A stretch of 64,000 bases of DNA, taken from Chthoniobacterales bacterium. Its GTDB lineage: Bacteria; Verrucomicrobiota; Verrucomicrobiia; Chthoniobacterales; SZAS-18. The stretch is from positions 4,293-68,292 of the forward strand of contig JBBRQH010000020.1 of the NCBI GenBank assembly GCA_038226705.1, given 5' to 3'. The first letter of the stretch is position 1; every line of letters starts with the position of its first letter. Below are positions 1-38,627 of this stretch, one piece after another. The notes under the pieces were generated by a model. The model was not told the origin of the DNA and did not search any database. It saw nothing but the letters and a program-made list of their open reading frames with translations. Made by a program: the position numbers and the translations under genes.

Positions 1-1081
1 GACAAAGCTGCCGGATGCGCGACAGGCTGACCTTTCGGCCAAAATGGCGGCAAATCATTCCAAGACTGGCCGCGCCGCAATCCATCTCATCGATTTGCTC
101 GATGTGATCGATCTTCTTGACGCGCCCGGCCCGCTTTTTGAACAGCCCTTCTTCATCGACGAAAGGATCCTCACCATCTTCGTTAGCCGGCTTCTCCCCA
201 TCGAGTGCCACCTTGTCGTGAACCTGCGATTCGGCCGGCAACATCTCGGTCGTGAAATCGAGCGGGATGCGCGCTTCTGTTTTGGCCTGATAAACGGCCA
301 GGCGCTCGCTTAACAGTTTCTCGAATTCCGGGAATCGCCCGCGCAGATCAAGAACTGCCTTGGGGTTGAGAGCCAGTAACTGGCAATCGGTGAATGCTTC
401 GACCGAAGCCGCGCGCGGCGAGCCATTCAGAATGGAGAGCTCACCGAAAAAATCACCCTCGCGATAAAAAGCCAGGTTCCTTTCCTTACCATTGACCCCG
501 GCAAAGGCGCGGGCGCGACCCTTCTCGATCACAAACATGGGCCCGGCTTCGTCGCCCTGCCGAATAATCAAATTGCCCTTGGTCACGCCGATCGGTTCCA
601 GCTTGTCGATCACGCTGCGCAACGCGATCGCAGGCAGGCGCCCGAAATTGCTGAACTGGTAAAGGAAGCTTTGCAAAGCCCGACTGCGGCCTGTCATCTC
701 GACGTAACGCTTCAAATCCGGCACCTGTTCGATCAGTTGCAGAAAGTCTTTTCGATCAATCCGCAAAACGTCCACCGCCGTGCTGCATCGGACAGTCGCG
801 CTGCGCATCCCGCCGTCGGCCAGCGCGGCTTCGCCGAAACTGTCTCCCGGTTTGAGTGCGCCCAGCGGAATTTCCTCGCCGTCCGCTTTGACTTTCAGCG
901 CGCGGGCGCGCCCATGGGTCAGAAGATAAAACGAATCGGCCGGATCATCCTGCCGAACGATCACGTCGCCAAATTCAAAATGCTCTTCCTGGAGGAGCGG
1001 CTCAAGCGCGGCAAAATGCTCTTCCGAAAGGAACTTGAAGGCGGCCGAGCGCCGCATGATTTCGAGATCGGGCGCTTTCAT
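1..1081 (-). CDS. ABC exporter, N-terminal part: two cyclic-nucleotide-binding domains followed by the start of a C39 (bacteriocin-processing) peptidase domain; the 3' end runs off the window
   Basis: Absent from the ORF track because there is no stop in the window. My reverse-strand translation from ATG 1081..1079 gives MKAPDLEIMRRSAAFKFLSEEHF.... It shows two cNMP-binding signatures (GDSFGEAALADGGMRSATV and GDFFGELSILNGSPRAASV), then DEMDCGAASLGMICRHFG, the catalytic-Cys motif of C39 peptidase domains. Confidence 0.85.
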   Translation of the reverse strand, partial: MKAPDLEIMRRSAAFKFLSEEHFAALEPLLQEEHFEFGDVIVRQDDPADSFYLLTHGRARALKVKADGEEIPLGALKPGDSFGEAALADGGMRSATVRCSTAVDVLRIDRKDFLQLIEQVPDLKRYVEMTGRSRALQSFLYQFSNFGRLPAIALRSVIDKLEPIGVTKGNLIIRQGDEAGPMFVIEKGRARAFAGVNGKERNLAFYREGDFFGELSILNGSPRAASVEAFTDCQLLALNPKAVLDLRGRFPEFEKLLSERLAVYQAKTEARIPLDFTTEMLPAESQVHDKVALDGEKPANEDGEDPFVDEEGLFKKRAGRVKKIDHIEQIDEMDCGAASLGMICRHFGRKVSLSRIRQLC

Positions 1082-3024: not shown

Positions 3025-3408
3025 ATGCACGCTCTTTTCAGAAAAAGATCCACGCGGGTTCTTCTGCTCACACTCTGCGCTGTTTTCGGATTGTTTTTGG
3101 TCAGGAGTTACAACGGCGCCGTGCAGCAAAACGGCACCCGCGCTGTGGCTGCCCTGTTCGGTCACGCTATTTACGAGATTCAACAGGCCCCTCCCGGCAT
3201 CCAGAGAGTCGAAATTTTTCTCGGACGACTCAAAGCGATCGATTCGAGGAAGAGTCCCCCGGAAGTGCAACAGGCGCTTCGCAATTACATCGCCGCAATC
3301 GAACCCTCCCTCCAGGCGGCCCGGACCGGTCAAAGTATCGTGCCCTACGACCATGCTATTGCTCAAGCCAAACAGCGACTGGTAGATGTCGTCCGCGACA
3401 ACGAATAG
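3025..3408 (+). CDS. Small membrane-anchored or secreted hypothetical protein (127 aa)
   Basis: N-terminal hydrophobic segment RVLLLTLCAVFGLFLV. The two overlapping ORFs in other frames are R/S/P-rich and look spurious. Confidence 0.6.
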   Translation: MHALFRKRSTRVLLLTLCAVFGLFLVRSYNGAVQQNGTRAVAALFGHAIYEIQQAPPGIQRVEIFLGRLKAIDSRKSPPEVQQALRNYIAAIEPSLQAARTGQSIVPYDHAIAQAKQRLVDVVRDNE

Positions 3409-3525
3409 TCGGAAAGCTGGCCCGGGAGGTTCGCGTTTGACGGCCGCGGCCCCAGATTTTCGATTTCACGAAATCGACACACGATCGCAACCAAATCGCC
3501 ATGCGAAGGGTTCAACCTTTACTCC

Positions 3526-3813
3526 ATGGATATAGACGCTCTGCACTCGACCCTCCTTTCGATCACCCTCGTTTCGGATAAACTTCGCTCCACCCGCGAG
3601 AATCTTTGCGTCATGACCGATGTCCGGTCGGATGTAGCGGAATCCCTCGCGCATGCGGAAAGCGATTTGCGCGTGGCCAAGGCAACCCTGGCGGGCGAGC
3701 TCGGATTCAATTTGTGTCCGCGCTGCTGGCCACCGGAAATCGTCACGACCGATCGAGATGGTCGAGTGAATTGTCCCGCCTGCGGCCAGATTTCTTACGA
3801 TCGAGCGGCCTGA
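3526..3813 (+). CDS. Small coiled-coil + C4 zinc-ribbon protein (95 aa)
   Basis: About 57 aa of helical hairpin, then CPRC-x15-CPAC. Same architecture as the 73-aa protein at 2497. Confidence 0.6.
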   Translation: MDIDALHSTLLSITLVSDKLRSTRENLCVMTDVRSDVAESLAHAESDLRVAKATLAGELGFNLCPRCWPPEIVTTDRDGRVNCPACGQISYDRAA

Positions 3814-6022: not shown

Positions 6023-6484
6023 ATGACATTTAGAAAATTTGAAGGTCCATTCTCCGATGTCCGACTTCTCGGATGCCGTAATTTATTCCTGAGCGATCGA
6101 TTGATTCTCGATGTGGGCGAGTATCAGGAGAGTAATCCCGAGACGGTTGAGATTGATGGAGAAAAGGTGGAAAGCCACGTCGTCGGCCTAACGGAAACGT
6201 CCCGACTATGGCGATTCACTTTTGAGCGACCCTTCGTGCTGAGAACGCGCGACCGGGATATCCACGAGCAGGAGCCGGTGTCCCTCGAACTACCGGGCAA
6301 GTGTTCATACAGCGAGGATTCCGATTGGCTGCGCTCGTTTGAGACCGATCCCAACGTGCGCAGCTTTATCCCCACGCACTACATCTTCGAGTTAGTCGAG
6401 TATACCGTCGAAATCATCGGAGATGATTCGCCCGCGGTGGAAGAGATCGCTAATGAGTTGGGTGATGTCCGCGGCGATGATTAG
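6023..6484 (+). CDS. Acidic cytoplasmic hypothetical protein (153 aa), visibly lower GC
   Basis: ORF starts 7 nt after the preceding stop. The DNA is AT-richer than its surroundings. No recognisable motif. Confidence 0.55.
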   Translation: MTFRKFEGPFSDVRLLGCRNLFLSDRLILDVGEYQESNPETVEIDGEKVESHVVGLTETSRLWRFTFERPFVLRTRDRDIHEQEPVSLELPGKCSYSEDSDWLRSFETDPNVRSFIPTHYIFELVEYTVEIIGDDSPAVEEIANELGDVRGDD

Positions 6485-6558
6485 GGCCGCCCCGACACTC
6501 CACTTTCCCAAGCCTATCTTTGAATATCAAGCCAAGCCAACATGTCTGATCTTTCACC

Positions 6559-6957
6559 ATGTACAAGAATTTTATCAGCGCCGCCGCCGTCCTCCTGTCT
6601 TTTTGCCTCTGCCAGGCCGAGAATAACCCTACGAAAACGTCGCAGTCAGAGACAGGCATTGAAGGAGCTATCCTGATGAGTCCGGCGCATGGAGGGCCCA
6701 TCCGGGAAGGCATGTCGGACTCAAAACCTTTGGCCCGCGCGAAGTTCGTCGTGGGAAGGGCGGGGGAAACAAAGCCGGTTGCATCCTTCGTCACCGATGA
6801 AAAAGGAAACTTCCGAGTCTCGTTGCCGCCGGGTCATTACAGCGTCACGAGGGAAGGCGGCAAACGGGGAATCGGAAGCTTTGGTCCGTTCGACGTGGAA
6901 GTCGGAGCCGGGAAAATAACGTCCGTGCAATGGCACTGTGATAGTGGAATGCGGTAG
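6559..6957 (+). CDS. Secreted carboxypeptidase-regulatory-like (beta-sandwich) domain protein
   Basis: Signal peptide MYKNFISAAAVLLSFCLCQA. DEKGNFRVSLPPGHYSV is typical of CarboxypepD_reg-like domains. Confidence 0.6.
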   Translation: MYKNFISAAAVLLSFCLCQAENNPTKTSQSETGIEGAILMSPAHGGPIREGMSDSKPLARAKFVVGRAGETKPVASFVTDEKGNFRVSLPPGHYSVTREGGKRGIGSFGPFDVEVGAGKITSVQWHCDSGMR

Positions 6958-7608: not shown

Positions 7609-7681
7609 TGGAGGCAAGGGGATTCGAACCCCTGACATCCAGCTTGCAAAGCTGGCGCTCTACCAACTGAGCTATGCCCCC
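7609..7681 (-). tRNA. tRNA-Ala (anticodon UGC); CCA not encoded
   Basis: Reverse complement reads GGGGGCATAGCTCAGTTGGTAGAGCGCCAGCTTTGCAAGCTGGATGTCAGGGGTTCGAATCCCCTTGCCTCCA. The cloverleaf has a TGC anticodon loop and the G3:U70 alanine identity pair. Confidence 0.95.
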
Positions 7682-7951
7682 GCAAAATGGAAGATGGAAT
7701 GGTAATTGGAAGATCGAGAAATGCAATGCGCGGAGGAGGCTGGTGCATTACTCCAAGACTTCCGGATTGGCGGCTCGTTTCTCCCGAATCTGTGAAAATC
7801 CGTGTTCATCTGCGGCTAGTTTGATTGGGCTGGCCGCGGAGCGATTACGATTACGACCATGAGCGCGTGATTGGCCGGTGATCCCCATCGAGTAACCCTG
7901 TTCATCCTGTCAGGTTTTTCTCCGAGATCCAGAGAACACCGAGTATAGAAA

Positions 7952-7990
7952 AAATGCCGGATAGAGATGTTATATCGCCATCCGGCATTT
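7952..7990 (-). terminator. Intrinsic terminator downstream of the 16S rRNA gene
   Basis: On the minus strand, an 11-bp perfect stem AAATGCCGGAT/ATCCGGCATTT with a 17-nt loop is followed by TTTCTAT. This gives a U-run of six when the stem-terminal Ts are counted. Confidence 0.5.
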
Positions 7991-8168
7991 ATCGATGTCT
8001 GCAGCAAAGACTGAATTGTGCGCTACCGTTTCGAGTTTCTCTAAGCCCTGGTTTCTTTCGATTCCAAGGTCTTCACGGCATGTCTGAAATCCCGAAAGAC
8101 TTCAGGGTTAGCCGTCGACCTATTCAAACCACTCTCTGGGGAGCGAACTCCCTGGAGGTGATTGAATA

Positions 8169-9714
<1,546 letters not shown>

Positions 9715-19840: not shown

Positions 19841-19913
19841 GAGATTTTGACCGGTCACGGTTTGCCAGCCCGGCATTGACCCGATGCGCAGGCGCTGGCA
19901 CGAGGTAATCCTC

Positions 19914-21661
19914 ATGGCGCCGCGTTCCCTGCTCGCACTCGCGATCTCTTCTCTCGCTCTCCTGCCCTTTGCCGCGGGCGCACCTGCGACAAAGGCAATT
20001 GTCGGCGGCACGCTCATCGATCCCGCCTCCGGCCGGGTGATCGAGGATTCCGTCATCGTGATCGAAGGCGACCGCATTAGCGCGGCCGGCCCCGGCAAGG
20101 AAGTGAAGATTCCCGCCGCCGCCGAACGCGTGGACGCAAGGGGACGCTGGATCATTCCCGGCTTGATCGATACCCATGTGCACTTCTTCCAGTCCGGCGG
20201 CCTCTATACCCGCCCGGATGGCTGCGACCTGCGCGCGGTACGCCCGTATCCGGAAGAGATCGCCGGAATTAAGAAAAATCTGCCGGACACCTTCAAACGC
20301 TGGCTGCGCAGCGGCGTGACTTCCGTGGTCGATGTCGGCGGTCCGTTTTGGAACTTCGACATGCGCGACCAGGCGCGCGCCACCAAGGCTGCCCCGCGTG
20401 TGGCCGTCGCGGGTCCGCTCATTTCCAGCGTCTCGCGCGAAGCGCTCGATCTCGGCGATCCTCCCATCCTCGAAATCAAGACGCCGGAAGAGGCGCGCGC
20501 ACTCGTGCGCCGGCTCGTCGAACGAAAGCCCGATTTTGTGAAGATCTGGTACATCCGGCGCACGCCCGAGGACGTCGAAAACTTCCGCCCCATCGTGCGA
20601 GCCACGATCGAGGAGAGCCACGCCCATAAGGTGGCGTCGCTGTCCATGCCACGGAACTCGAGACCGCCCGGGCTGCCGTCCAGGAAGGCGCTGAAGTACT
20701 CGTTCACATGGTGAGCGACACCGATGTGGATGCGGATTTCATCAAGCTCGCGCGCGATCGCAAGGTAATCATCATCCCGACGCTGGTGGTGAATGAACGC
20801 TACTACCGGACCTTTGGCGCCTCGCTCAATCTCCTCCCGGCCGAGCTCCGCTTCGCAAACCCCGCCGTGGTCGGGACGCTGACCGATATCCGGCATCTTT
20901 CGCCCGATCTCCTTCCCGCGCGGATCAAGCAGGCCATGAGCGAGCCGGAAAGAAACGAACGCGCGATTCAGCTCGTGCTCTCCATCGTGAAGCGGAATTT
21001 GAAGGCGCTTTTTGAAAGCGGCGTGACGGTCGCGGCCGGCACCGATGCCGGAAACATCGGCACCCTGCATGGCCCTTCCATCTTTCGTGAATTTGTCCTC
21101 ATGACCGAAGCGGGCCTTACGCCCATGCAGATTCTCGCTTGTGCCACGGCGAATGGCGCACGGGTCTTTGGGCCGAATGCCAACACCGGCGAAATCGCGG
21201 CGGGCAAACTGGCCGACCTCGTTATCCTGCGCGCCAACCCGTTGGAAGCGATCGGGAACACCGCGAACATTCAGACCGTCATTAAAGGCGGTGACGTTTA
21301 CGACGCGGATACCCTCATCGAGCAGACGCCGGAGGAGGTCGTGCAACGGCAGGTTAACGCCTTCAACGCCCATAACGTTGAAGTGTACCTCTCTACCTAT
21401 GCGCCAGAGGCGAAGTTCTCCCGGGAACCCGACCAGATCCGCGAGACCGGCCCGGCGGCAATTCGTCAGTCGCTGGAGAAGGAATTTGCCGCTTCCCCGT
21501 CACTCCATCTCCAGGTCGTAAAACGAACCGTGACCGGCAACACCGTGGTCGATCACGTCGCAATGATCCGCGCCACGAATCCGCGGAAGCCGGAGGAGTC
21601 AGTCCTGACCTATGAAGTGAGCGGCGGCTTGATCCGCAGTCTGCACTCCGTGACGAAATAG
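19914..21661 (+). pseudogene. Secreted amidohydrolase fused to a C-terminal NTF2/SnoaL-like domain; disrupted by a frameshift near 20627-20640 (or a sequencing error)
   Basis: ORF 19884..20714 carries IPGLIDTHVHFF. After ...EESHAHK the homologous continuation VAVHATELETARAAVQEGAEVLVHMVSDTDVD is in the frame of ORF 20708..21661, directly behind an in-frame TAA at 20627-20629. Confidence 0.7.
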
Positions 21662-21751: not shown

Positions 21752-23563
21752 ATGCCTGCCCTTGTTGCTGCCCCGCTCTCCTTTGTCGCGAACGCTTTTC
21801 GATATACCCGCCGGGAGTCGCGCGCGGTGCGCGTGGGCAAGGTGGGGGTTGGCGGATCGAATCCGATCCGCGTGCAGTCGATGATCACCTGCGACACGAT
21901 GGATACCGCCGCGTGCATCCAGCAATCGCTCGATCTCGCCGCGGTAGGATGTGAGATCGTCCGCATCACGGCTCCCACCGTGAAGGACGCCGCCAATCTC
22001 GAGCATATCAAGGCCGGTCTGCTGGCTCGCGGCTGCGATGTGCCCCTCGTGGCTGACATTCATTTCAAGCCAGATGCCGCCATGGAGGCCGCAAAATGGG
22101 TGGAAAAGGTGCGCGTAAACCCGGGGAACTTCGCGGATTCGAAAAAATTCAACGTCCGCGAATACACTGACGACCAGTACGAAGCGGAACTCGAGCGAAT
22201 TCGCGAACGCTTTACGCCGCTCGTGCGGCGCTGCCTCGAACGCGGCATTTCCCTCCGGATTGGCACCAATCATGGTTCGCTCTCCGATCGCATCATGAAT
22301 CGCTTCGGCGATACCCCGCTCGGCATGGTCGAAAGCGCCTTGGAATACACGCGAGTCGCCCGCGACCTCGGCTGTCACGACCTCATTTTCTCAATGAAGG
22401 CGAGCAACCCAAAGGTGATGGTGAATGCCTATCGCCTCCTGGTCGCGCGCTTGAATGAACTCGGTCCGGACTGGAATTATCCCATCCATCTCGGCGTCAC
22501 CGAAGCTGGCGACGGCGAAGACGGTCGGATCAAGAGCGCCACCGGTATCGGTTCGCTGCTCGCAGATGGGATCGGCGACACGGTCCGCGTCTCGCTCACC
22601 GAGGACAGCGTGCATGAGATCCCCGTGGCGCAGGCGCTCGTCGCACCATTCAATGCCAGCCGCATCCCGGATTCCGAACTATCCGCGGAGGATCTGCCGT
22701 TCGATCCGTTTACCTATCAGCGCCGGGAAACCCATCGCGTTGTCATCCAGGGCGTCGCGCTGGGCGGAGAGGAAGTGCCGCGCGTCGTAGTGGCCGAGGA
22801 GACGTTCAACGCCGTGGCCCACAAACTCGCCCAACTCGGCGACTTTCAGCCCGAAATTGTGCGTGAAGCCGCTCTCGCCGCGGGCGAAATCGTCGAAATC
22901 GATCCACGCGATGAGGATGCCATCGCGGGGCTCAACGCCTCGCCTTTGGCGCGTCTAGTCGCCGTGCAGGACGGCCTCACCAATCTGCCCACCATCACGG
23001 CGTACCGGCTCCTCGCCGCACGCGTCGCAGAACGCCATCCGATTTTGCTCAAGGATACGCTGCTGCCCATGGCACCAGGCTGCAGTGACCGCGAGTTCGT
23101 CGCCGCTCTGCTCGACGCCGCCACCAGCATCGGTTCGCTTCTCTGCGACGGCATCGGCGACGCGGTCATGGTCCACGGTTGGAACACGCCGGGGCAGTCC
23201 CTGCGCATCGCCTACAACACCCTCCAGGCGGCCGGGGCCCGTATCTTCAAGACCGATTACGTGGCCTGCCCGAGCTGTGGACGCACGCTATTCAACCTCC
23301 AGGACACCACCGCCAAGATTCGCGCTGCCACCGGGCACCTCAAAGGTGTGAAAATCGCCATCATGGGCTGCATCGTGAATGGGCCGGGCGAAATGGCGGA
23401 TGCCGATTTCGGCTACGTCGGCGGCGCGCCCGCGAAGGTAAATCTTTATGTCGGCAAGAAGGCCGTGAAGTTCAATATCCCGGAGGCCGAAGCCGTCGAG
23501 CGCTTGCAGGATTTGATCCGCGAACACGGCAAATGGATAGATGCCCCCGTGGACGCGAACTGA
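21752..23563 (+). CDS. ispG: 4-hydroxy-3-methylbut-2-en-1-yl diphosphate synthase, long form with an insert domain
   Basis: GGSNPIRVQSMITCDT, RITAPT, NPGNF, and the C-terminal cluster motif CPSCGRT...GCIVNGPGEMADADFG. Confidence 0.92.
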   Translation: MPALVAAPLSFVANAFRYTRRESRAVRVGKVGVGGSNPIRVQSMITCDTMDTAACIQQSLDLAAVGCEIVRITAPTVKDAANLEHIKAGLLARGCDVPLVADIHFKPDAAMEAAKWVEKVRVNPGNFADSKKFNVREYTDDQYEAELERIRERFTPLVRRCLERGISLRIGTNHGSLSDRIMNRFGDTPLGMVESALEYTRVARDLGCHDLIFSMKASNPKVMVNAYRLLVARLNELGPDWNYPIHLGVTEAGDGEDGRIKSATGIGSLLADGIGDTVRVSLTEDSVHEIPVAQALVAPFNASRIPDSELSAEDLPFDPFTYQRRETHRVVIQGVALGGEEVPRVVVAEETFNAVAHKLAQLGDFQPEIVREAALAAGEIVEIDPRDEDAIAGLNASPLARLVAVQDGLTNLPTITAYRLLAARVAERHPILLKDTLLPMAPGCSDREFVAALLDAATSIGSLLCDGIGDAVMVHGWNTPGQSLRIAYNTLQAAGARIFKTDYVACPSCGRTLFNLQDTTAKIRAATGHLKGVKIAIMGCIVNGPGEMADADFGYVGGAPAKVNLYVGKKAVKFNIPEAEAVERLQDLIREHGKWIDAPVDAN

Positions 23564-23616
23564 AGGACCTGCACGACCGGCTGGTGCGAATCGGTTCCCG
23601 CGTCCGGTGCCGGCAC

Positions 23617-23650
23617 AAAAAAGGGTGCAGTTGGGCTCCGGACCTGCACC
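23617..23650 (-). terminator. Intrinsic terminator on the minus strand with no annotated minus-strand gene upstream
   Basis: The minus strand reads GGTGCAG-13 nt-CTGCACC followed by CTTTTTTG. Confidence 0.45.
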
Positions 23651-23805
23651 GCCGAGGAACGCCCCGACGCCGGGTGAGTCATAGGCGTGGAGAAAGCGGA
23701 CGGAAGGAGGAACAGGCGGCGCCTTCGGAGGGGGCCCGCATTTGGTGGTATTTATGTTCTTTCAGAGGGAAACGGAAAAAATTGAGCCAAAACGTCTCTT
23801 TCCGA

Positions 23806-24254
23806 AAGAGTCGGCGCTATTATTCGAAGAGGCGGCGCTCTTCCCAAAGAGCCGGCGCTCTTATTCGAAGAGCCGGCGCTCTTACGCGAAGAGCCGACGC
23901 TCTTATTCGAAGAGTCGGCGCTCTTACTCGAAGAGGCGGCGCTCTTCCCAAAGAGCCGGCGCTCTTATTCGAAGAGGCGACGCTCTTACGCGAAGAGCCG
24001 GCGCTCATGCGCGAAGAGCCGGCGCTCTCATCCGAAGAGTCGGCGCTCTTCCCAAAGAGCCGGCGCTCTTATTCGAAGAGCCGACGCTCTTACGCGAAGA
24101 GCCGGCGCTCTTGCGCGAAGAGTCGGCGCTCTTGCGCGAAGAGTCGGCGCTCTTTCCGAAGACCCGGCCCTCGTATTCGAAGAGCCGGCGCTCTTGCGCG
24201 AAGAGCCGGCGCTCTTATTGGACGAGTCGGCGTTTTCGTCCGAAGAGCGGCTGC
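23806..24254. repeat. Tandem array of 22 units of 21 bp (four units of 20 bp), each with the dyad AAGAGC-N4-GCTCTT; 104-bp higher-order periodicity
   Basis: Unit starts (first A of AAGAG) are 23806, 23827, 23847, 23868, 23889, 23910, 23931, 23951, 23972, 23993, 24014, 24035, 24055, 24076, 24097, 24118, 24139, 24159, 24180, 24201, 24222 and 24243. The short units at 23827, 23931, 24035 and 24139 are exactly 104 bp apart. Confidence 0.95.
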
Positions 24255-24359
24255 TAAAGCAGGGAACACGACCTTCGATCTTCGATCGAAGTTCGACACG
24301 CTTCGCCACCAACCGCCAACTACAACCGACACCCATCTCAGCCACGAACCCTGGCTGCC

Positions 24360-24854
24360 ATGTCTAACCCGACCGAAAAAGCGGACGTGAAAGCCTGCCT
24401 TGAAGCTTGCGAGAAGTGCATCGAGATCTGTGACAAGGCGGCCGCGGAGGAAGCGCGGCTGACCGCTCCCGGGCGATCGAAGTTTGGAGATCTCTGCGCG
24501 GATGCCGCGGATATCTCTCGGTCGACAGCTTCATTCCTCCGGCGCGAATCACCGGAGACCCCGCGAATCTGCGCCCTTTGCGCCCAGATTTGCCGCCTCT
24601 GTGCGGACGCGGCCGCGCCCTCGGCAGCGACGAGCGAGCTGCACCTTCTTTGCGCGAAAGCCTGCACGTTCTGTGCGGACGAATGCGCCCTCCACGCCGT
24701 AGAGCGTAGAGCTGAAGGCAAGAAATACAGTCGCGGACTTGCCTCTCCCGGAAAGCCAACCCAGGTCTCCAGGCGCGCAAATCCCGCCGCGCCTCCAGAC
24801 CCCCTCTCCGGCCGACCCCAATCCGAACACGCCAAGGTAACGTTTGGACGCTGA
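24360..24854 (+). CDS. Cys-rich four-helix-bundle (DUF326-type) putative copper-binding protein
   Basis: Repeated CxxxCxxC-type motifs: CLEACEKCIEICD, CALCAQICRLCAD, CAKACTFCADECA. Confidence 0.75.
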   Translation: MSNPTEKADVKACLEACEKCIEICDKAAAEEARLTAPGRSKFGDLCADAADISRSTASFLRRESPETPRICALCAQICRLCADAAAPSAATSELHLLCAKACTFCADECALHAVERRAEGKKYSRGLASPGKPTQVSRRANPAAPPDPLSGRPQSEHAKVTFGR

Positions 24855-25134
24855 GGGCATTTGCCCCTGGACCTTCATGCGCCACGCCGTGCCGAAGGAG
24901 GCCACTCTCACTCGTTTCTCAGCGCGATTCCGACCCACCACGAAAATTTTACGACGCATCCGCCCGGCCGACCCGAACCGCAAGACCAGCTGCGTGCTCG
25001 TAACAAGCTATTGACGTGCGCTTTACAAAAAAACTTCCTCGAGAATGCGCGTCCCTTTCGGGGCGGATAGGCGAGCTCCCCTCGTGATTGGGGCTGGCGC
25101 AATCACCGGGTTGTGTCATGACGCCGCTCCTCCC

Positions 25135-28100
25135 ATGTTTTACCGTATCTGCGCCTCCCTCGTCGCGACCCTTCTGCTCGCGAGCTCCTGCCTCGGTCAA
25201 ATCAGCTATACCGGGGGCACCTACACGCAAGACTTCAATACGCTCCCGAACTCCGGGACGTACACGCTCAGCGGCGCCGGGCCGATCGCCCTCGACGCGG
25301 CGCCGATCAACGCGGCCGGAATGGCGGGCTGGTCCATCGGCCTCGTGCCCGGCAGCAGCGGCACCAACACGCTCTTCCGCGTCGATACCGGCGCCTCGAA
25401 TTCTGGCTCCGCGTACTCATATGGGGCGAGCGCCGCGACAAACCGTGCGCTTGGCTCGGTCGCCAGTGGAACGACCATCTCACGCTTCGGCGCCATCTTC
25501 ACCAACGGCACCGGCAATACCATCACGAGCGTCACGATCGGCTATACCGGCCAGCAATGGCGGAATGGCGGATCGAATTTCGCCAACACTCTCCGGTTCT
25601 CGTACGCCGTCGGGGCTGCGAGCATTAGTGATACCGCGGCGACGTTTGCGGAAGTCACCACCCTGAATCTCGTCTCGCCCGTGGTCGGAACGACCGCAGC
25701 CGCCCTCGACGGCACGCTGCCCGGCAACCAATCCGCGCTCACCGCTCAAGTCGCCGGACTCCTCTGGCCTCCCGGGCAGACGCTGGTCATTCGCTGGAAC
25801 GACGCCAACGATGCCGGCTCCGACGACGGACTCGCTATCGATGACTTTTCGTTCACCAGCGCAGCTGGCGGTGGACCGCTGACGGTGACCGGCACCACCC
25901 CGGCGAACGGGGCGGTAAACCAGGCTCCGAACGGAAGCCTGTCGGTCACGTTCAATCACCCGGTCACGGTGACCGGCAATTGGTATCAGATCACGGGCAC
26001 TACCAGCGGCACGCACGCCGCCACCGTGACGGGCGGGCCTTCCACTTTCTCGCTCAAGCCGACGACCGAACTGGCCTTCGGCGAAACCGTTTCGGTGACC
26101 TTCGTGGCGGCCAATATCGTGGACCAAAACACGAGCCTGAATCTCCCGGCCGATTACACCTTCAGCTACAGCACCGTCGCGGCCCCGCTCAGCACGACCT
26201 TCATTCACGACATCCAGGGCAGCGGTGCGAGCAGTCCGATCGTGGGCACAAATGTGCGCATCCAGGGCGTGGTGACCGGCTCTTTCCAGAGCACGACGAA
26301 CGGCCTGAAGGGCTTCTTTGTTCAGGAGGAGGATGCAGATGCCGACAACGACCCGAATACTTCGGAAGGCATCTTCGTTTTCGATAATGGCAATGCTCCA
26401 GCCGTGCTGCAGGGACACTTGGTGACCGTGATCGGCACGGTTACAGAATTCAACGGACTAACGGAACTTTCGCCCACTCTCTCCGTGCAGATCAACGGAT
26501 TTGCGCCCTTGCCCAACGCCGTGCAACTCACGCTACCGCTCGCGAGTGCCACAGACCTCGAGAGGTATGAGGGAATGCGCGTGGTTCTGCCGCAGACGTT
26601 GACCGTCACAAATAACTTTGACCTCGGACACTTCGGAGAAATTGAAATCTCCTTGGGGCGTCTCGCGCAGCCAACCAATGTGACCACCCCAGGGGCAGCC
26701 GCGAACGCTTTGCAGGCTCAAAATAATCTCAACCGCATCAAGGTGGACGACGGCTCGAGCAGCCAATACGTGGATCCCACCCCGTATGAATTCGGCGCGA
26801 GCCCCACCTTGCGCACCGGCAACACTGTTACGGGCCTGACCGGCGTGGTCACTTATATCGCTGGTTCGTACAGTATCGAGCCGACCAGCACGCCCGTTTT
26901 CGTCGATGCGAATCCGCGGCCGGCACCTCCGGCGGTGGGCGGAAACGTCCACGTTGTCGGCGCCAATGTGTTGAATTACTTCAACGGCGATGGGCTGGGC
27001 GGGGGGTTTCCCACCGCGCGTGGAGCCACGACGCCGGCGGAATTAGCCCGGCAACGCGCGAAAGTGGTGGGGGCACTTTCCGCCCTGAACGCCGATATCT
27101 ACGGCCTGACCGAAGTCGAGAACGACGGCTACGGACCCACCAGTGCTCTGCAGGATATCGTCAACGGCCTGAACACGCTGGCACCAAGTGGAACCTCCTA
27201 CACTGCGATCGCTCCCTCGTTCGCCCTCGGCACGGATCTCATTCGCGTCGCCCTGATCTATCGCAATGAGACGGTTACGCCGGTCGGCCTGCCGGCCACC
27301 ACCAATGACGTTTCGTTCAGCGGCGCCCGGCCCCCTCTGGCGCAGACCTTCCAGGAAATCGCCAGCGGCGAGAAGCTCACCGTTTGTGTCAACCACTTCC
27401 GGGCCAAAGGCAGCGCCGCCGCAGGCGATCCACTCAATCTCGACCAAGGCGACGGGCAGGCGACGAACAACCACCTGCGCGTGCAGGAGGCCATGGCCCT
27501 CACGTCGTGGCTGGCCACCGATCCCACCGCTAGCGGCGACCCGGACTTCCTCATCATCGGCGACCTGAATTCCTACGCGATGGAAGATCCCATCATGACC
27601 ATCAAGAGCGCGGGTTACACCGATCTCACGCGTACTTACGAAGGCGCGAGCGGCTATTCCTACGCGTTTGCCGGCCAGTTCGGCCACCTCGACTATGCGC
27701 TGGCAACCGCAAGCCTCACCAGTCAGGTCACCGGAACCCAGGCCTGGCACAACAATTCGGACGAGCCCATTTTCCTTGACTACAACCTCGAGAACAAGAC
27801 TCCCGCGCAGGCCGCCCTCAATGTGGGCACACCCTACCGCGCCTCCGATCACGATCCCATTCTCATCGGCATCACCCTCGTTCAGGCGCAGGCGCCGCTC
27901 GTCACGCAGGATCCGGCCAGCCAGACGGTCAACACGGGCGACACCGTCACTTTCACCGTGATGGCCACGGGCACGCCTGCGCTCTCCTACCAATGGTTCA
28001 AAGACTTGCAGCCGATTGGTGGTGCGACGAGCGCCACGCTCGTGCTGCCGAGCGTCGGGCTCGGCGCTGCGGGATCTTATACGGTCGCGGTGACCAACTT

Positions 28101-36627: not shown

Positions 36628-37610
36628 GCCGGCGTTCCGCTCAGGACTCCCGCATGCTTCAAGGGGCGATGTTGCGCGCCAAACCAATCGATGAACTTCA
36701 CGAGTCCCGCGCGCAGGGGCGTCGCCGGGGAGTAGCCGAGTTCCGCCTGCGCTTTCGTGATGTCCGCGTAGGTCAAAGGAAGGTCGCCCGGCTGTTCGGG
36801 GAGATATTCGATCAACGCCTTTCGCTCCAGCAATTCCTCCAGCAGTTCAATGAGCCGCGCGAGTGACGTCGTTTCGCTGCCGCCCAGATTGAAGATATCG
36901 AAGCGCGGCCCTTCGAAGTCCAGTGCCGCCATGATTCCGCTGACGATATCAGCCACGTACGTGTAATCCCGCCGCGTGGAGCCATCGCCGAACTGGCGGA
37001 TGGGCCGTCCCGAGAGAATGCGATCGGTGAACTGATGAATGGCGAGATCGGGCCGCTGGCGGGGACCGAAAACCGTGAAGAACCGGAGGCACACCACGCG
37101 GAGCCCATAGAGGTGCGCGTAATTGGAGCAAAGGTGCTCGCCCGCGAGCTTCGTGGCGGCATACGGGCTGATCGTCGCCTGCAGCGGCATATCCTCCCGG
37201 AAGGGGGCGGTCTTGCAAATACCGTAGACCGACGACGACGAGCCAAAGATGAACTGCGGCACGTTCGCCTTCCGGGCCGCCTCGAGCAGATTCAAGGTGC
37301 CCGTGACGTTCGCGTCCACGTAGAGCTGAGGTTGCTGGATCGAAGGACGAACACCGGCGCGCGCGGCCAGATGCACGATGGCATCGAATCCCCCGTCCGA
37401 AACGACCCGTCCCACCCCGGCGGAATCCTCGAGCGAAACGCGGTGCAATTCGATCCGATCGCGGACCGCGGCGAGGTTCATTTCCTTGCGTCGCAGCTCG
37501 TAGAAATCGTTGAAGTCGTCCAGCACTGAGACGCAATGAGCCGCCTCGAGCAGTCGCTCGACCAGGTGAGATCCGATGAACCCGGCTCCGCCGGTGACGA
37601 GAACGTTCAC
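36624..37610 (-). CDS. NAD-dependent epimerase/dehydratase (UDP-sugar 4-epimerase-like SDR)
   Basis: MNVLVTGGAGFIGSHL..., the SSSSVYG...YAATK catalytic Ser/Tyr-x3-Lys motif. Confidence 0.88.
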   Translation of the reverse strand: MNVLVTGGAGFIGSHLVERLLEAAHCVSVLDDFNDFYELRRKEMNLAAVRDRIELHRVSLEDSAGVGRVVSDGGFDAIVHLAARAGVRPSIQQPQLYVDANVTGTLNLLEAARKANVPQFIFGSSSSVYGICKTAPFREDMPLQATISPYAATKLAGEHLCSNYAHLYGLRVVCLRFFTVFGPRQRPDLAIHQFTDRILSGRPIRQFGDGSTRRDYTYVADIVSGIMAALDFEGPRFDIFNLGGSETTSLARLIELLEELLERKALIEYLPEQPGDLPLTYADITKAQAELGYSPATPLRAGLVKFIDWFGAQHRPLKHAGVLSGTPA

Positions 37611-37688
37611 ATCTGCACCGTTACCCGTCCGCCGATTCCCGTCGAGCGTACAAAAAGGACCAGGGAGCGACGGCAGAACAGGTCAGAA

Positions 37689-37720
<32 letters not shown>

Positions 37721-37859
37721 TTCCCGCCTGCTATCCATCGTCCCTGGCGCCGGGATGATCCGCGACCCGGCGCGTGACGCAAATAATTTCACCGTCAGCG
37801 TTCTTGCGGTTTACCGCGCAATGCTTACAACTCGCGGCTCTCTTCCTGCCGCCTGCAAA

Positions 37860-38627
37860 ATGCCGACTCTATTACTCTACGCCTCCGCCGCGTTGTTGCT
37901 TGCCTCGGCGGGGTTGGGCTACATGAACTTTTCGCGGCTCAAGGAGCGCACGACGCAACTCAAGGAGCGCTCGGAAAAGCTTACGAAAACCACGTCCGAT
38001 CTCGGCTCGACCAAGAAGGAGTTGAAGGGTATGCAAGAGCAATTCACGACTTCTGCCGCAAAGGTGACCGCGTTGGAATCGAATCTCGCCCAGGCGAAAA
38101 CGGAGTCGGAACGCGTCAACAGCCAGATCACCGATCTACAGTTGCAGATCGCCGCCAAGCAGACGGAAGTTGAGCAACTCAAGGCGCAGGTGGCGACCGC
38201 CAAACCCGGCGGTGAGCCCGGGGCGCCGGACGAGTCCCAGCGCCGGCTCGTCGAATTGCAGGCCCAAGTGGCGGAGCTGAGCCAGGTGAAGACCAGCCTC
38301 GACGACAAACTGGCCGCGACGGAAAGTCGCGTGCGGGGACTGCAACTTGCCGAACAACGGCGCCAGGTAGGCGTGGCGGCGCGCGGATTGAGCGGTGAAG
38401 TCCTCGCCGTCAATCAATCCTGGAATTTCGTCGTGCTCAACTTGGGAGACCGGCAGGGCGTAACCCCGAACGCGGAAATGCTGGTCATGCGGCGCGGAGC
38501 AATGGTGGGAAAAGTCCGGATCACGTCGGTGGAGCCTTCCCAATCGATCGCCGATATCGTGCCGTCCTCCCTCGCCCCCGGACTCGTCGTCCAACCCGGG
38601 GATCGCGTCATTTATCCCGGCTCGTAA
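37860..38627 (+). CDS. Membrane-anchored coiled-coil protein with a C-terminal beta-rich domain
   Basis: TM anchor LLLYASAALLLASAGLGY and heptad-rich LKERTTQLKERSEKL...QLQIAAKQTEVEQLKAQ. Alternative start at 37821. Confidence 0.6.
   Translation: MPTLLLYASAALLLASAGLGYMNFSRLKERTTQLKERSEKLTKTTSDLGSTKKELKGMQEQFTTSAAKVTALESNLAQAKTESERVNSQITDLQLQIAAKQTEVEQLKAQVATAKPGGEPGAPDESQRRLVELQAQVAELSQVKTSLDDKLAATESRVRGLQLAEQRRQVGVAARGLSGEVLAVNQSWNFVVLNLGDRQGVTPNAEMLVMRRGAMVGKVRITSVEPSQSIADIVPSSLAPGLVVQPGDRVIYPGS

Follow-up and report, generated by a model that had tools for sequence, protein, structure and literature searches.

Tandem 6-4-6 inverted repeats behind a conserved leader: a probable functional non-coding module next to ispG on a Chthoniobacterales chromosome

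The F-plasmid centromere sopC consists of 12 tandem 43-bp units, each of which contains a 16-bp inverted repeat that is bound by a SopB dimer, and parC of plasmid pSK41 is built of 20-bp tandem repeats. The family of repeats of EBV oriP comprises 20 units of 30 bp with an 18-bp EBNA1 palindrome, and the papillomavirus E2 site reads ACCG-N4-CGGT. The iterons of theta-type plasmids such as P1, F, R6K and RK2 are repeats of 17-22 bp with a spacing of ~21-22 bp. On bacterial chromosomes, long extragenic tandem arrays are rare and are usually written off as VNTRs. Here we describe such an array, located downstream of ispG in a 64-kb window (the whole stretch of DNA that was analysed). Like sopC and other plasmid centromeres it is a tandem of 10-20 units, each of them with a 16-bp dyad, and by analogy it would likely share with sopC the logic of loading many dimers side by side.

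Architecture of the array and its setting

Reading of the sequence, TRF and parsing of the units all confirmed a head-to-tail array at 23806-24254 (Table 1). TRF describes the segment 23806-24232 either as 20.5 copies with a period of 21 bp (score 497) or as 4.1 copies with a period of 104 bp (89% matches, score 651), and with laxer scoring it lets the array reach back to 23796. A unit is composed of the 16-nt core AAGAGNCGGCGCTCTT and a linker, which measures 5 nt in 16 units and 4 nt in the remaining 4. An earlier note on this DNA had counted 22 units; these do not hold as 22 equal ones, since 20 are well formed and the two at the 3' end are decayed, and a further decayed unit precedes the array. 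Parsing gave the same starts for the four 20-bp units as that note, spaced by exactly 104 bp. The higher-order repeat that it had called exact is exact in this spacing, but its four copies are 82-92% identical in pairwise comparison, differing at 8-19 positions.

The dyad symmetry proposed for the unit is real and far above chance, the mean arm being 5.0 vs 3.34 +/- 0.19 in shuffled sequences. Five arm pairs are near-invariant, and the sixth (C6-G11) has C in 12, T in 5 and G in 3 of the 20 units. The core AAGAGNCGGCGCTCTT occurs 19 times at <=2 mismatches vs 0.29 times expected by chance, with no occurrence outside the array in the 64-kb window (<=2 mismatches, and also with free centres). 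The array expanded by duplication of units and later by duplication of five-unit blocks, with concerted evolution in its interior and decay of the edge units. Because its longest exact repeat is 49 bp, an assembler with k>49 can resolve its structure, although the copy number could still be collapsed by assembly.

Table 1. Features in and around the array (window positions unless the second locus, L083, is named)
Feature	Position	Strand	Remarks
ispG (gcpE)	21752..23563	+	Pfam GcpE 405 bits; stop TGA 23561-23563; start codon uncertain; ORF as listed begins 21677
Conserved non-coding leader	23564..23805	+	homologous to L083 556-804
171-aa ORF across array	23742..24257	+	judged spurious
Decayed edge unit (unit 0)	23782..23805	+	TTGAGCCAAAACGTCTCTT + TCCG, at leader/array junction; read from sequence
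Well-formed units (n=20)	23806..24221	+	21/20 bp; arms AAGAG(C)/(G)CTCTT, 4-nt centre CGGC or CGAC, 4-5 nt linker
104-bp, five-unit higher-order repeat, 4 copies	23827..24242	+	starts 23827, 23931, 24035, 24139; 20-bp unit first in each
Decayed 3' edge units	24222..24260	+	ACGAGTCGGCGTTTTC..., AAGAGCGGCTGC...; starts 24222 and 24243
Spacer, non-conserved	24261..24359	+	between array and Csp3/DUF326-like gene; small palindrome 24275-24296
Cys-rich four-helix-bundle (Csp3/DUF326-like) gene, 164 aa	24360..24854	+	flanking gene; orphan at sequence level
L083 array	805-1025		ten units AAGAGC-N4-GCTCTT and a decayed eleventh

The gene upstream of the array is ispG, as the earlier note had stated. 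Its relatives at 80 Chthoniobacterales loci (65-82% identity, the nearest ispG being 82% identical) place the organism, as judged from this gene, in the Chthoniobacterales (Verrucomicrobiota), and neither the array, nor the leader, nor the flanking genes of the window are present at these 80 ispG loci, the closest one included. For the downstream gene the proposed assignment to DUF326 remains under the Pfam cut-off (16.9 vs 20.4 bits), but the protein matches solved Csp3-type four-helix bundles (3lmf, E=5.7e-6; 5fig, E=0.004). The leader begins one base past the ispG stop codon, leader and array run in the same direction as ispG and the Csp3-like gene, and the search for a terminator between them gave nothing; the spacer between array and Csp3-like gene contains no terminator or promoter match. 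The position and orientation of the module and the lack of a terminator therefore suggest that it is probably transcribed in the window.

Several readings of the leader were considered and rejected. Autocorrelation detects no 21-bp periodicity in it, which speaks against an ancient decayed array. On the minus strand, the sequence at 23624-23651 looks like a terminator hairpin with T6 behind it, but its fold z is -0.02 and L083 does not conserve it, and an NtrC-like or sigma-54 reading, made by eye, has the wrong spacing and is not conserved either.

The contig is chromosomal: genes for 16S rRNA, tRNA-Ala and SRP RNA lie in the window alongside the housekeeping genes pyrF, ispG and pntAB and a member of the lipoate ligase family. 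Pfam searches with the larger ORFs at ~10-39 kb identified HerA-like, MFS, GHMP kinase, pyrF, lipoate ligase family, amidohydrolase, ispG, ExeM/NucH nuclease, pntAB and M20 peptidase genes, and no par, rep, integrase, cas, HTH or defence gene was found among the ORFs examined in this region. The earlier note had likened the array to plasmid centromeres and iterons and had proposed a search for a neighbouring ParB, RHH or HTH gene. No such gene turned up among the ORFs examined at ~10-39 kb, and this result, together with the chromosomal contig and the lack of a DnaA box (<=1 mismatch, 23000-25200), argues against membership in either group. Inspection by eye of the small ORFs at 28.5-30.8 kb revealed no HTH or RHH, and there is no GC skew switch.

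BLAST and pattern scans of the array against plasmid (including PLSDB), phage and IMG/VR collections gave no match; the sole hit of the IMG/VR scan, L082, is a chance occurrence that, by our reading, falls within a terminase-like coding sequence. An exact DNA pattern of two units revealed no array in GTDB representatives and JGI metagenomes, a result that excludes near-identical arrays only, as the search string required CGGC as the centre of neighbouring units, so that arrays of the type found in L083 would escape it. One match to the exact pattern, L001, is a chance occurrence inside a threonine-aldolase-like CDS, and single AAGAG-N6-CTCTT sites in L020 and L049 are unrelated and apparently lie within coding sequence.

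Two other Chthoniobacterales loci carry strong but unrelated arrays with a 21-bp period (L030, 3193-3598; L038, 6195-6636). They have no indels across 18-21 units, no codon signal, and a dyad symmetry that is weak or partial. Searches with the ORF of the L038 array, and viral searches with the neighbours of the L030 array, returned nothing. In ~1 Mb, all strong non-coding arrays with a period of at least 14 bp have a 21-bp period (3/3). Other comparably scoring TRF rows are L029 1356-1883 (period 244, score 1017) and L072 9829-10475 (period 126, score 653), the latter presumed to be a coding repeat.

A homologous leader and array at a second locus

An exhaustive HMMER search with the 171-aa ORF against 1.84 billion representative proteins gave 21 weak hits, one of which, P0020, is an ORF that lies over a homologous array. 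It contains the peptides EEPALF, ERALL and KSALLFEE and then PKSSRSYRK, that is, the same peptides as the window ORF with the same kind of frame switch. The remaining hits, nearly all of them eukaryote-type heptad proteins, were rejected as unrelated, because they are explained by E/Q codons being the reverse complement of L codons; P0015, on L084, is likewise an unrelated heptad-repeat case. The contig of P0020, referred to here as L083, is a 1.2-kb Logan contig from SRR19962015, and its cluster has a further record in an NCBI contig of 11.75 kb.

The ten units of L083 measure 21, 18, 21, 21, 21, 21, 21, 20, 21 and 20 bp, and a decayed eleventh (AAAAGCTGACGCCATT) closes the array. Their arms are the same as those in the window (AAGAGC/GCTCTT), the centres read AGGC, CGGC, GCGC, GGGC, GCGG or AGCC, and the linkers differ from those of the window in both sequence and length. 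The copy number is ~10 units vs ~22 in the window. Upstream of the array, the leaders of the two loci are 64% identical and differ by indels whose lengths are not multiples of 3. Their local alignment score of 38 compares with 19.7 +/- 2.6 (max 30) in shuffles and with 19.2 +/- 2.2 (max 26) against real sequence, and blastn of the leader finds L083 at the expected position with E=0.001. The block CAAAACG.CTC.TTCCGAAAGAG at the leader/array junction is kept in L083. Homology ends at the ispG stop codon, an extension into ispG scoring at noise level. The leader pair contains no conserved ORF, and a small conserved ORF was rejected as an explanation of the leader because the tblastx similarity hops between frames.

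The neighbourhoods of the two arrays are unlike. L083 has a dihydrolipoyl-dehydrogenase-type gene (lpdA) on the opposite strand to the left; to the right, where the window has the Csp3-like gene, its array directly adjoins a fragment that weakly resembles the IS66 C-terminus (15.6 bits vs a cut-off of 30), and its right flank has no similarity to the spacer at 24261-24359. A homologous leader and array in two gene contexts indicate a module that is a unit in its own right: by sequence comparison, the element is a conserved non-coding module formed by a ~240-bp leader and a tandem of the 16-bp inverted repeat AAGAGC-N4-GCTCTT, with linkers of 2-5 nt and units of mostly 21 bp, and it is known from two loci only, of which L083 is a contig of 1.2 kb. 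As the same array and the same upstream sequence recur in a second organism within a different neighbourhood, the array is probably a functional non-coding element, neither junk nor a gene. The earlier note knew of no described element with this unit, and our searches agree with it: no Rfam family, no plasmid or phage match, and no description in the literature was found.

The two loci also show which parts of the unit are constrained. In L083, 5/120 arm cells have changed vs 12/40 centre cells (Fisher p=3.4e-5), so that 96% of the arms are intact and 30% of the centres are changed, and the linkers have drifted. Changes in the outer arm cells number 5/200 in the window and 3/100 in L083. The centre is 4 nt long in 30/30 units of both loci, and the linker is 2, 4 or 5 nt long. 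Within the window array, the unit positions that vary are 6, 9 and 17-19; variants shared by several units all avoid the 10 outer arm positions (p=0.023), and changes in the arms are singletons only (Fisher p=0.045). Position 6 varies in 10/30 units vs its partner, position 11, in 1/30 (p=0.006). C>T changes, which leave a G-U pair on the plus strand, make up 9/11 of the arm transitions (9 vs 2, p=0.065). The cells of the arms form a pair in 90% of cases, the changes are one-sided C>U only, and no compensatory change was found in the window or in L083. It should be noted that the units of one array are mutual copies, so that these statistics overstate the number of independent events, and that the leader alignment used for the structure test contains two sequences only.

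Alternative explanations and the favoured reading

The frame rotates at every 104-bp copy (104 mod 3 = 2), the 171-aa ORF has no homologue and the unit variation shows no codon pattern; from these sequence properties we conclude that the array is not protein-coding. This agrees with the earlier note, which had argued against selection for a protein, and its observation that all three plus-strand frames are open across the array is borne out as well, the minus-strand frames having 3-6 stops each. If the ORF were nevertheless translated, it would yield a repeat protein of the heptads EEPALLF, KSRRSYS and RAGALIR, and the three open frames, the period of 21 bp (7 codons) and the annotation of the equivalent ORF in L083 by a gene caller would fit such a protein. 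The same DNA is, however, read in three frames across the 104-bp copies, and the units of 18, 20 and 21 bp in L083 shift the frame likewise. In addition, a search against 5.8 billion proteins returned no match to the ORF, itself included, although the neighbouring gene is present there, and the ORF appears to be absent from the record as a called gene; homologues are limited to compositionally similar eukaryote-type heptad proteins, and no family matches in Pfam, PHROG, PADLOC or NCBIfam. A repeat protein is thus very improbable and close to refuted. Even harder to credit is an assembly artefact, which might be suspected because the source appears to be an uncultured-organism assembly, a metagenome-assembled genome, and tandem repeats are prone to collapse: the divergence of the superrepeat copies and the 49-bp limit on exact repeats make the path resolvable, and a homologous array exists in an independent sample and assembly (SRR19962015 and the NCBI contig). 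A more serious competitor, yet in our opinion unlikely, is a neutral or selfish minisatellite (VNTR) without benefit for the cell, the fallback offered in the earlier note, in which a palindromic seed would have been amplified by replication slippage and unequal recombination, and the arms kept alike by gene conversion and template-switch 'quasipalindrome correction'. The array falls under the definition of a minisatellite (head-to-tail units of 10-100 bp in non-coding DNA), and prokaryotes are known to contain unique non-coding satellites whose function is unexplained (Subirana and Messeguer 2019, PMC6749651). Unequal crossing-over classically leaves behind higher-order structure and decayed edges of the kind seen here, and the array is absent 3' of ispG in all 80 relatives. 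Moreover, the variable positions 6 and 9 correspond to the two-strand deamination products (TCGG, CCGA) of the outer C of CCGG and may be mutational hotspots, and six conserved positions lie outside the arms. Against neutrality, array and leader survive in a second organism in which the leader retains only 64% identity, the arms there are conserved while centres and linkers drift, and the length of the centre is invariant. The bacterial deletion bias should have purged 220-450 bp of useless DNA over such a time, and the two genomic contexts imply that the module was retained or transferred as a unit. Should the array be neutral after all, it would still illustrate clearly, in a bacterium, how satellites with higher-order repeats evolve. 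Explanations beyond those considered here (DNA, RNA, neutral, protein, artefact) have a small residual probability.

The closest rival to our favoured reading, possible but on balance somewhat unlikely, is a plus-strand RNA element. Leader and array would be transcribed by read-through from ispG or from a promoter of their own, as L083 would require, and each unit would form a co-transcriptional 6-bp hairpin with a 4-nt loop; the 10-22 hairpins could act as a barrier to 3'-exonucleases or Rho that stabilises the upstream mRNA, as REP sequences do, or could sequester an RNA-binding protein at many sites, like a sponge. The position of the module, which starts one base after the ispG stop in the orientation of both neighbours and with no terminator found, speaks for this reading. 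So does the pattern of change in the arms: G11 is kept while its partner alternates between C and U, the 9/11 C>T transitions would break pairing on the minus strand and preserve it on the plus strand, 90% of the cells are paired, and loop sequence and linker length are free. Two C>T variants in L083 furthermore create plus-strand sites with a terminator-like hairpin and a T-run. On the other hand, compensatory changes are lacking, and both organisms have the same arm sequence. A CsrA-type protein that recognises loops would keep the loops, but here the loops, usually the determinant for the protein, are the variable part and the stems are fixed. The string of 22 small hairpins envisaged in the earlier note is not what the MFE fold gives, which consists of long-range pairing between units with a z of about -2.4 on both strands alike. 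No Rfam family matches the array, even at E up to 10, and no promoter match was found. The C>T excess could also stem from a strand bias in mutation or from the deamination of m5C at CCGG, and the unit counts on which it is based are not independent events.

The reading that we favour, albeit tentatively, is that the array is a series of operator-like sites for a dimeric DNA-binding protein. Each 16-bp repeat would be a site for a sequence-specific dimer encoded elsewhere, with two 6-bp half-sites one helical turn apart and a 4-bp spacer that is not contacted and would hence be fixed in length but free in sequence. A centre of 4 nt in 30/30 units, next to linkers of 2, 4 or 5 nt, is the prediction of such a fixed-spacer dimer site. 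Likewise, the identity of the arms in both organisms, at 64% identity of the leader and without compensatory changes, suggests that it is the sequence of the arms that is kept and not their pairing ability alone. With 10-22 consecutive sites and about two turns per unit, a long protein array could be loaded on the DNA, and the loaded locus might serve as a titration sink, as a nucleation or anchoring site, or as a barrier between ispG and the next gene. This view is supported by the array being real, non-random and non-coding, by the L083 arms being kept while the centres change, by the widespread variants of the window array avoiding the outer arm positions, and by the presence of the module in two unrelated gene contexts; the weak support for RNA (no Rfam match, no hairpin string in the fold, no terminator) points in the same direction. 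Other observations do not fit as well. The innermost pair is asymmetric with a C>T bias, which a symmetric protein dimer would not predict and a plus-strand RNA would, and the module is probably transcribed, given its orientation with ispG and the Csp3-like gene. A candidate gene for the binding protein is absent among the ORFs examined at ~10-39 kb, and L083 is too short to tell. Finally, the helical phasing emphasised in the earlier note (21 bp as two turns, 104 bp as ten) is weakened as an argument by the units of 18, 20 and 21 bp in L083, which show that strict phasing is not conserved.

A wider possibility, which we regard as doubtful, is that a class of bacterial non-coding element not described before has come into view here for the first time, in the Chthoniobacterales, composed of a ~240-bp leader and 10-22 tandem 6-4-6 inverted repeats, kept as a unit and able to change location. 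Such an element could be a chromosomal counterpart of the protein-loading platforms sopC and the oriP family of repeats, or a sponge RNA with stem specificity, and in that case the arrays of L030 and L038 could be sister elements with other specificities. Conservation of arms and leader in two organisms, combined with drift of what lies between the arms, is the mark that a recognised site leaves. Should a partner protein or a transcript come to light, an abundant uncultured soil lineage would gain a new regulatory or chromosome-organising element, and the natural array of 20 identical sites would provide a clean handle for pull-downs.

Comparison with known systems

The window array can be compared with several families of repeats. 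CRISPR repeats are 23-50 bp long and separated by unique spacers of ~26-72 bp, in contrast to the 16-bp repeat and 2-5 nt linkers found here, and no cas family was present among the ORFs scanned. Like REP and BIME elements, the palindromes of the window are extragenic, start just after a stop codon, lie head-to-tail with short linkers and are probably co-transcribed. However, REPs are dispersed in hundreds of copies with alternating orientation, whereas the window array has no copy elsewhere in the 64 kb, has a conserved unique leader and is arranged in one orientation, its centres and linkers having one polarity in all units of the window and L083. With the CsrB/RsmZ sponge RNAs and ToxI it shares many short hairpin-capable repeats in a locus of the size of a transcript. 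CsrB conserves GGA in its loops, but in the window the loops vary and the stems are fixed; as the earlier note had remarked, GGA loops are lacking, with 1 GGA in the array on the plus strand and 6 on the minus strand. ToxI units measure 34-45 nt and precede the gene for a toxin of the ToxN/AbiQ endoribonuclease type, compared with a unit of 21 nt followed by a Csp3-like gene in the window, and PADLOC gave no hit on the Csp3-like protein and the array region.

The array also resembles the prokaryotic non-coding satellites or VNTRs (PMC6749651) and the mycobacterial MIRUs in being intergenic and lineage-restricted, with higher-order structure and decayed edges. Unlike VNTRs, it is conserved together with its unique flank in a second organism, and its arms are far more conserved than its centre and linker; this cross-organism constraint, as far as it can be read from the two sequences, would go beyond the label of a minisatellite. 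The spacing of iterons, about two helical turns, is also that of the window array, which is immediately preceded by a stretch of lower GC content (23745-23790), but iterons are direct repeats and not dyads, are present in 3-9 copies, and are located beside a rep gene and DnaA boxes, neither of which was found. In contrast to sopC and parC, the window array has no adjacent sopAB, parAB or parMR, is chromosomal, has a 21-bp unit and shows no similarity to PLSDB plasmids. Hence, the defining features that were tested fail for plasmid centromeres, iterons, REP/BIME, CRISPR, ToxI and CsrB. In its presumed mode of action the array would come closest to sopC and the oriP family of repeats or, should it act as RNA, to REP/BIME and sponge RNAs. 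The oriP family of repeats and the E2 clusters belong to eukaryotic viral episomes, and their likeness to the array would be a functional analogy and not relatedness: as in these clusters, the window contains ~20 tandem palindromes that are candidate dimer sites, and, as in the E2 site, the arms are conserved around a 4-bp spacer that is free in sequence but fixed in length.

Base variants and array edges

The units of the palindromic array downstream of ispG carry CCGG at positions 6-9, with the recurrent variants TCGG (five units) and CCGA (three units), which are what deamination of the outer cytosine in CCGG would yield on the one strand and on the other. This pattern of substitutions hints that CCGG may be subject to m5C methylation in the window organism. 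GAAGAGC, the recognition sequence of the SapI type, is also present in every unit.

The homologous array on L083, a 1.2-kb contig that shares the leader and array module with the window, abuts the C-terminal ~55 codons of a transposase of IS66-like type (1027-1199), a fragment whose match to the Pfam model DDE_Tnp_IS66_C is weak (score 15.6 bits, cut-off 30). The junction could be a rearrangement scar, or it could hint that the module travels together with insertion sequences or inserts into them. In the same array, at 873-903 and 957-986, the arms carry two C>T variants (GCTTTT) that convert junction dyads into plus-strand terminator-like hairpins, each with a T-run after it. Four such sites were found against 1.7 +/- 1.4 expected, an excess that is not significant.

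Other features of the window

Two adjacent, overlapping ORFs encode two parts of one amidohydrolase (see the table), and this split points to a pseudogene, a frameshift or an error in the assembly. The 16S rRNA and tRNA-Ala genes (7609-9713) look like an unlinked rRNA operon: no 23S rRNA match was found across the whole 64-kb window, and the region from ~1.1 to 5.5 kb contains ORFs of at least 200 aa. The SRP RNA gene lies inside a long ORF on the opposite strand, and therefore the 5' end of this ORF is probably spurious.

Coordinates of additional features in the window
Feature	Position	Strand	Remark
tRNA-Ala	7609-7681	minus	
16S rRNA gene	8178-9713	minus	
Amidohydrolase, N-terminal part	19884-20714		ORF
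Amidohydrolase, C-terminal part + SnoaL domain	20708-21661		ORF
SRP RNA	37655-37749	minus	within long plus-strand ORF 37536-38627

Other arrays with 21-bp units

In ~1 Mb of DNA from Chthoniobacterales the strong non-coding arrays number three, those of the window and of the loci L030 and L038, and each of them has a period of 21 bp. The L030 array (3193-3598) comprises ~19 tandem units in two blocks, GGTGAACTGGTTCAGGTCTGG followed by GGTCAACTGGTTCACCTCCGA, and is unrelated to that of the window. The dyad TGAAC-TG-GTTCA is confined to its first block, and neither indels among the units nor a codon signal were found in it. An inverted partial copy lies immediately upstream, two unknown ORFs flank the array, and an XRE-type HTH gene (2157-2489) is located ~700 bp upstream.

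The L084 contig, whose 3' half is AT-rich, holds five 21-bp units (640-760; CTAGAAGAGGAGCCAGCCCTC). This array was detected only because its translation is EEEPALL, and we judged it unrelated to the window array.

The L038 array (6195-6636; 21 units, with a higher order of 42/84 bp) is likewise unrelated to the window array, and older. No indels and no ORF homologues were found for it. GAAT is constant in all 21 units, with an entropy of up to 1.7 bits at other positions, and the array looks like a set of phased direct-repeat sites.
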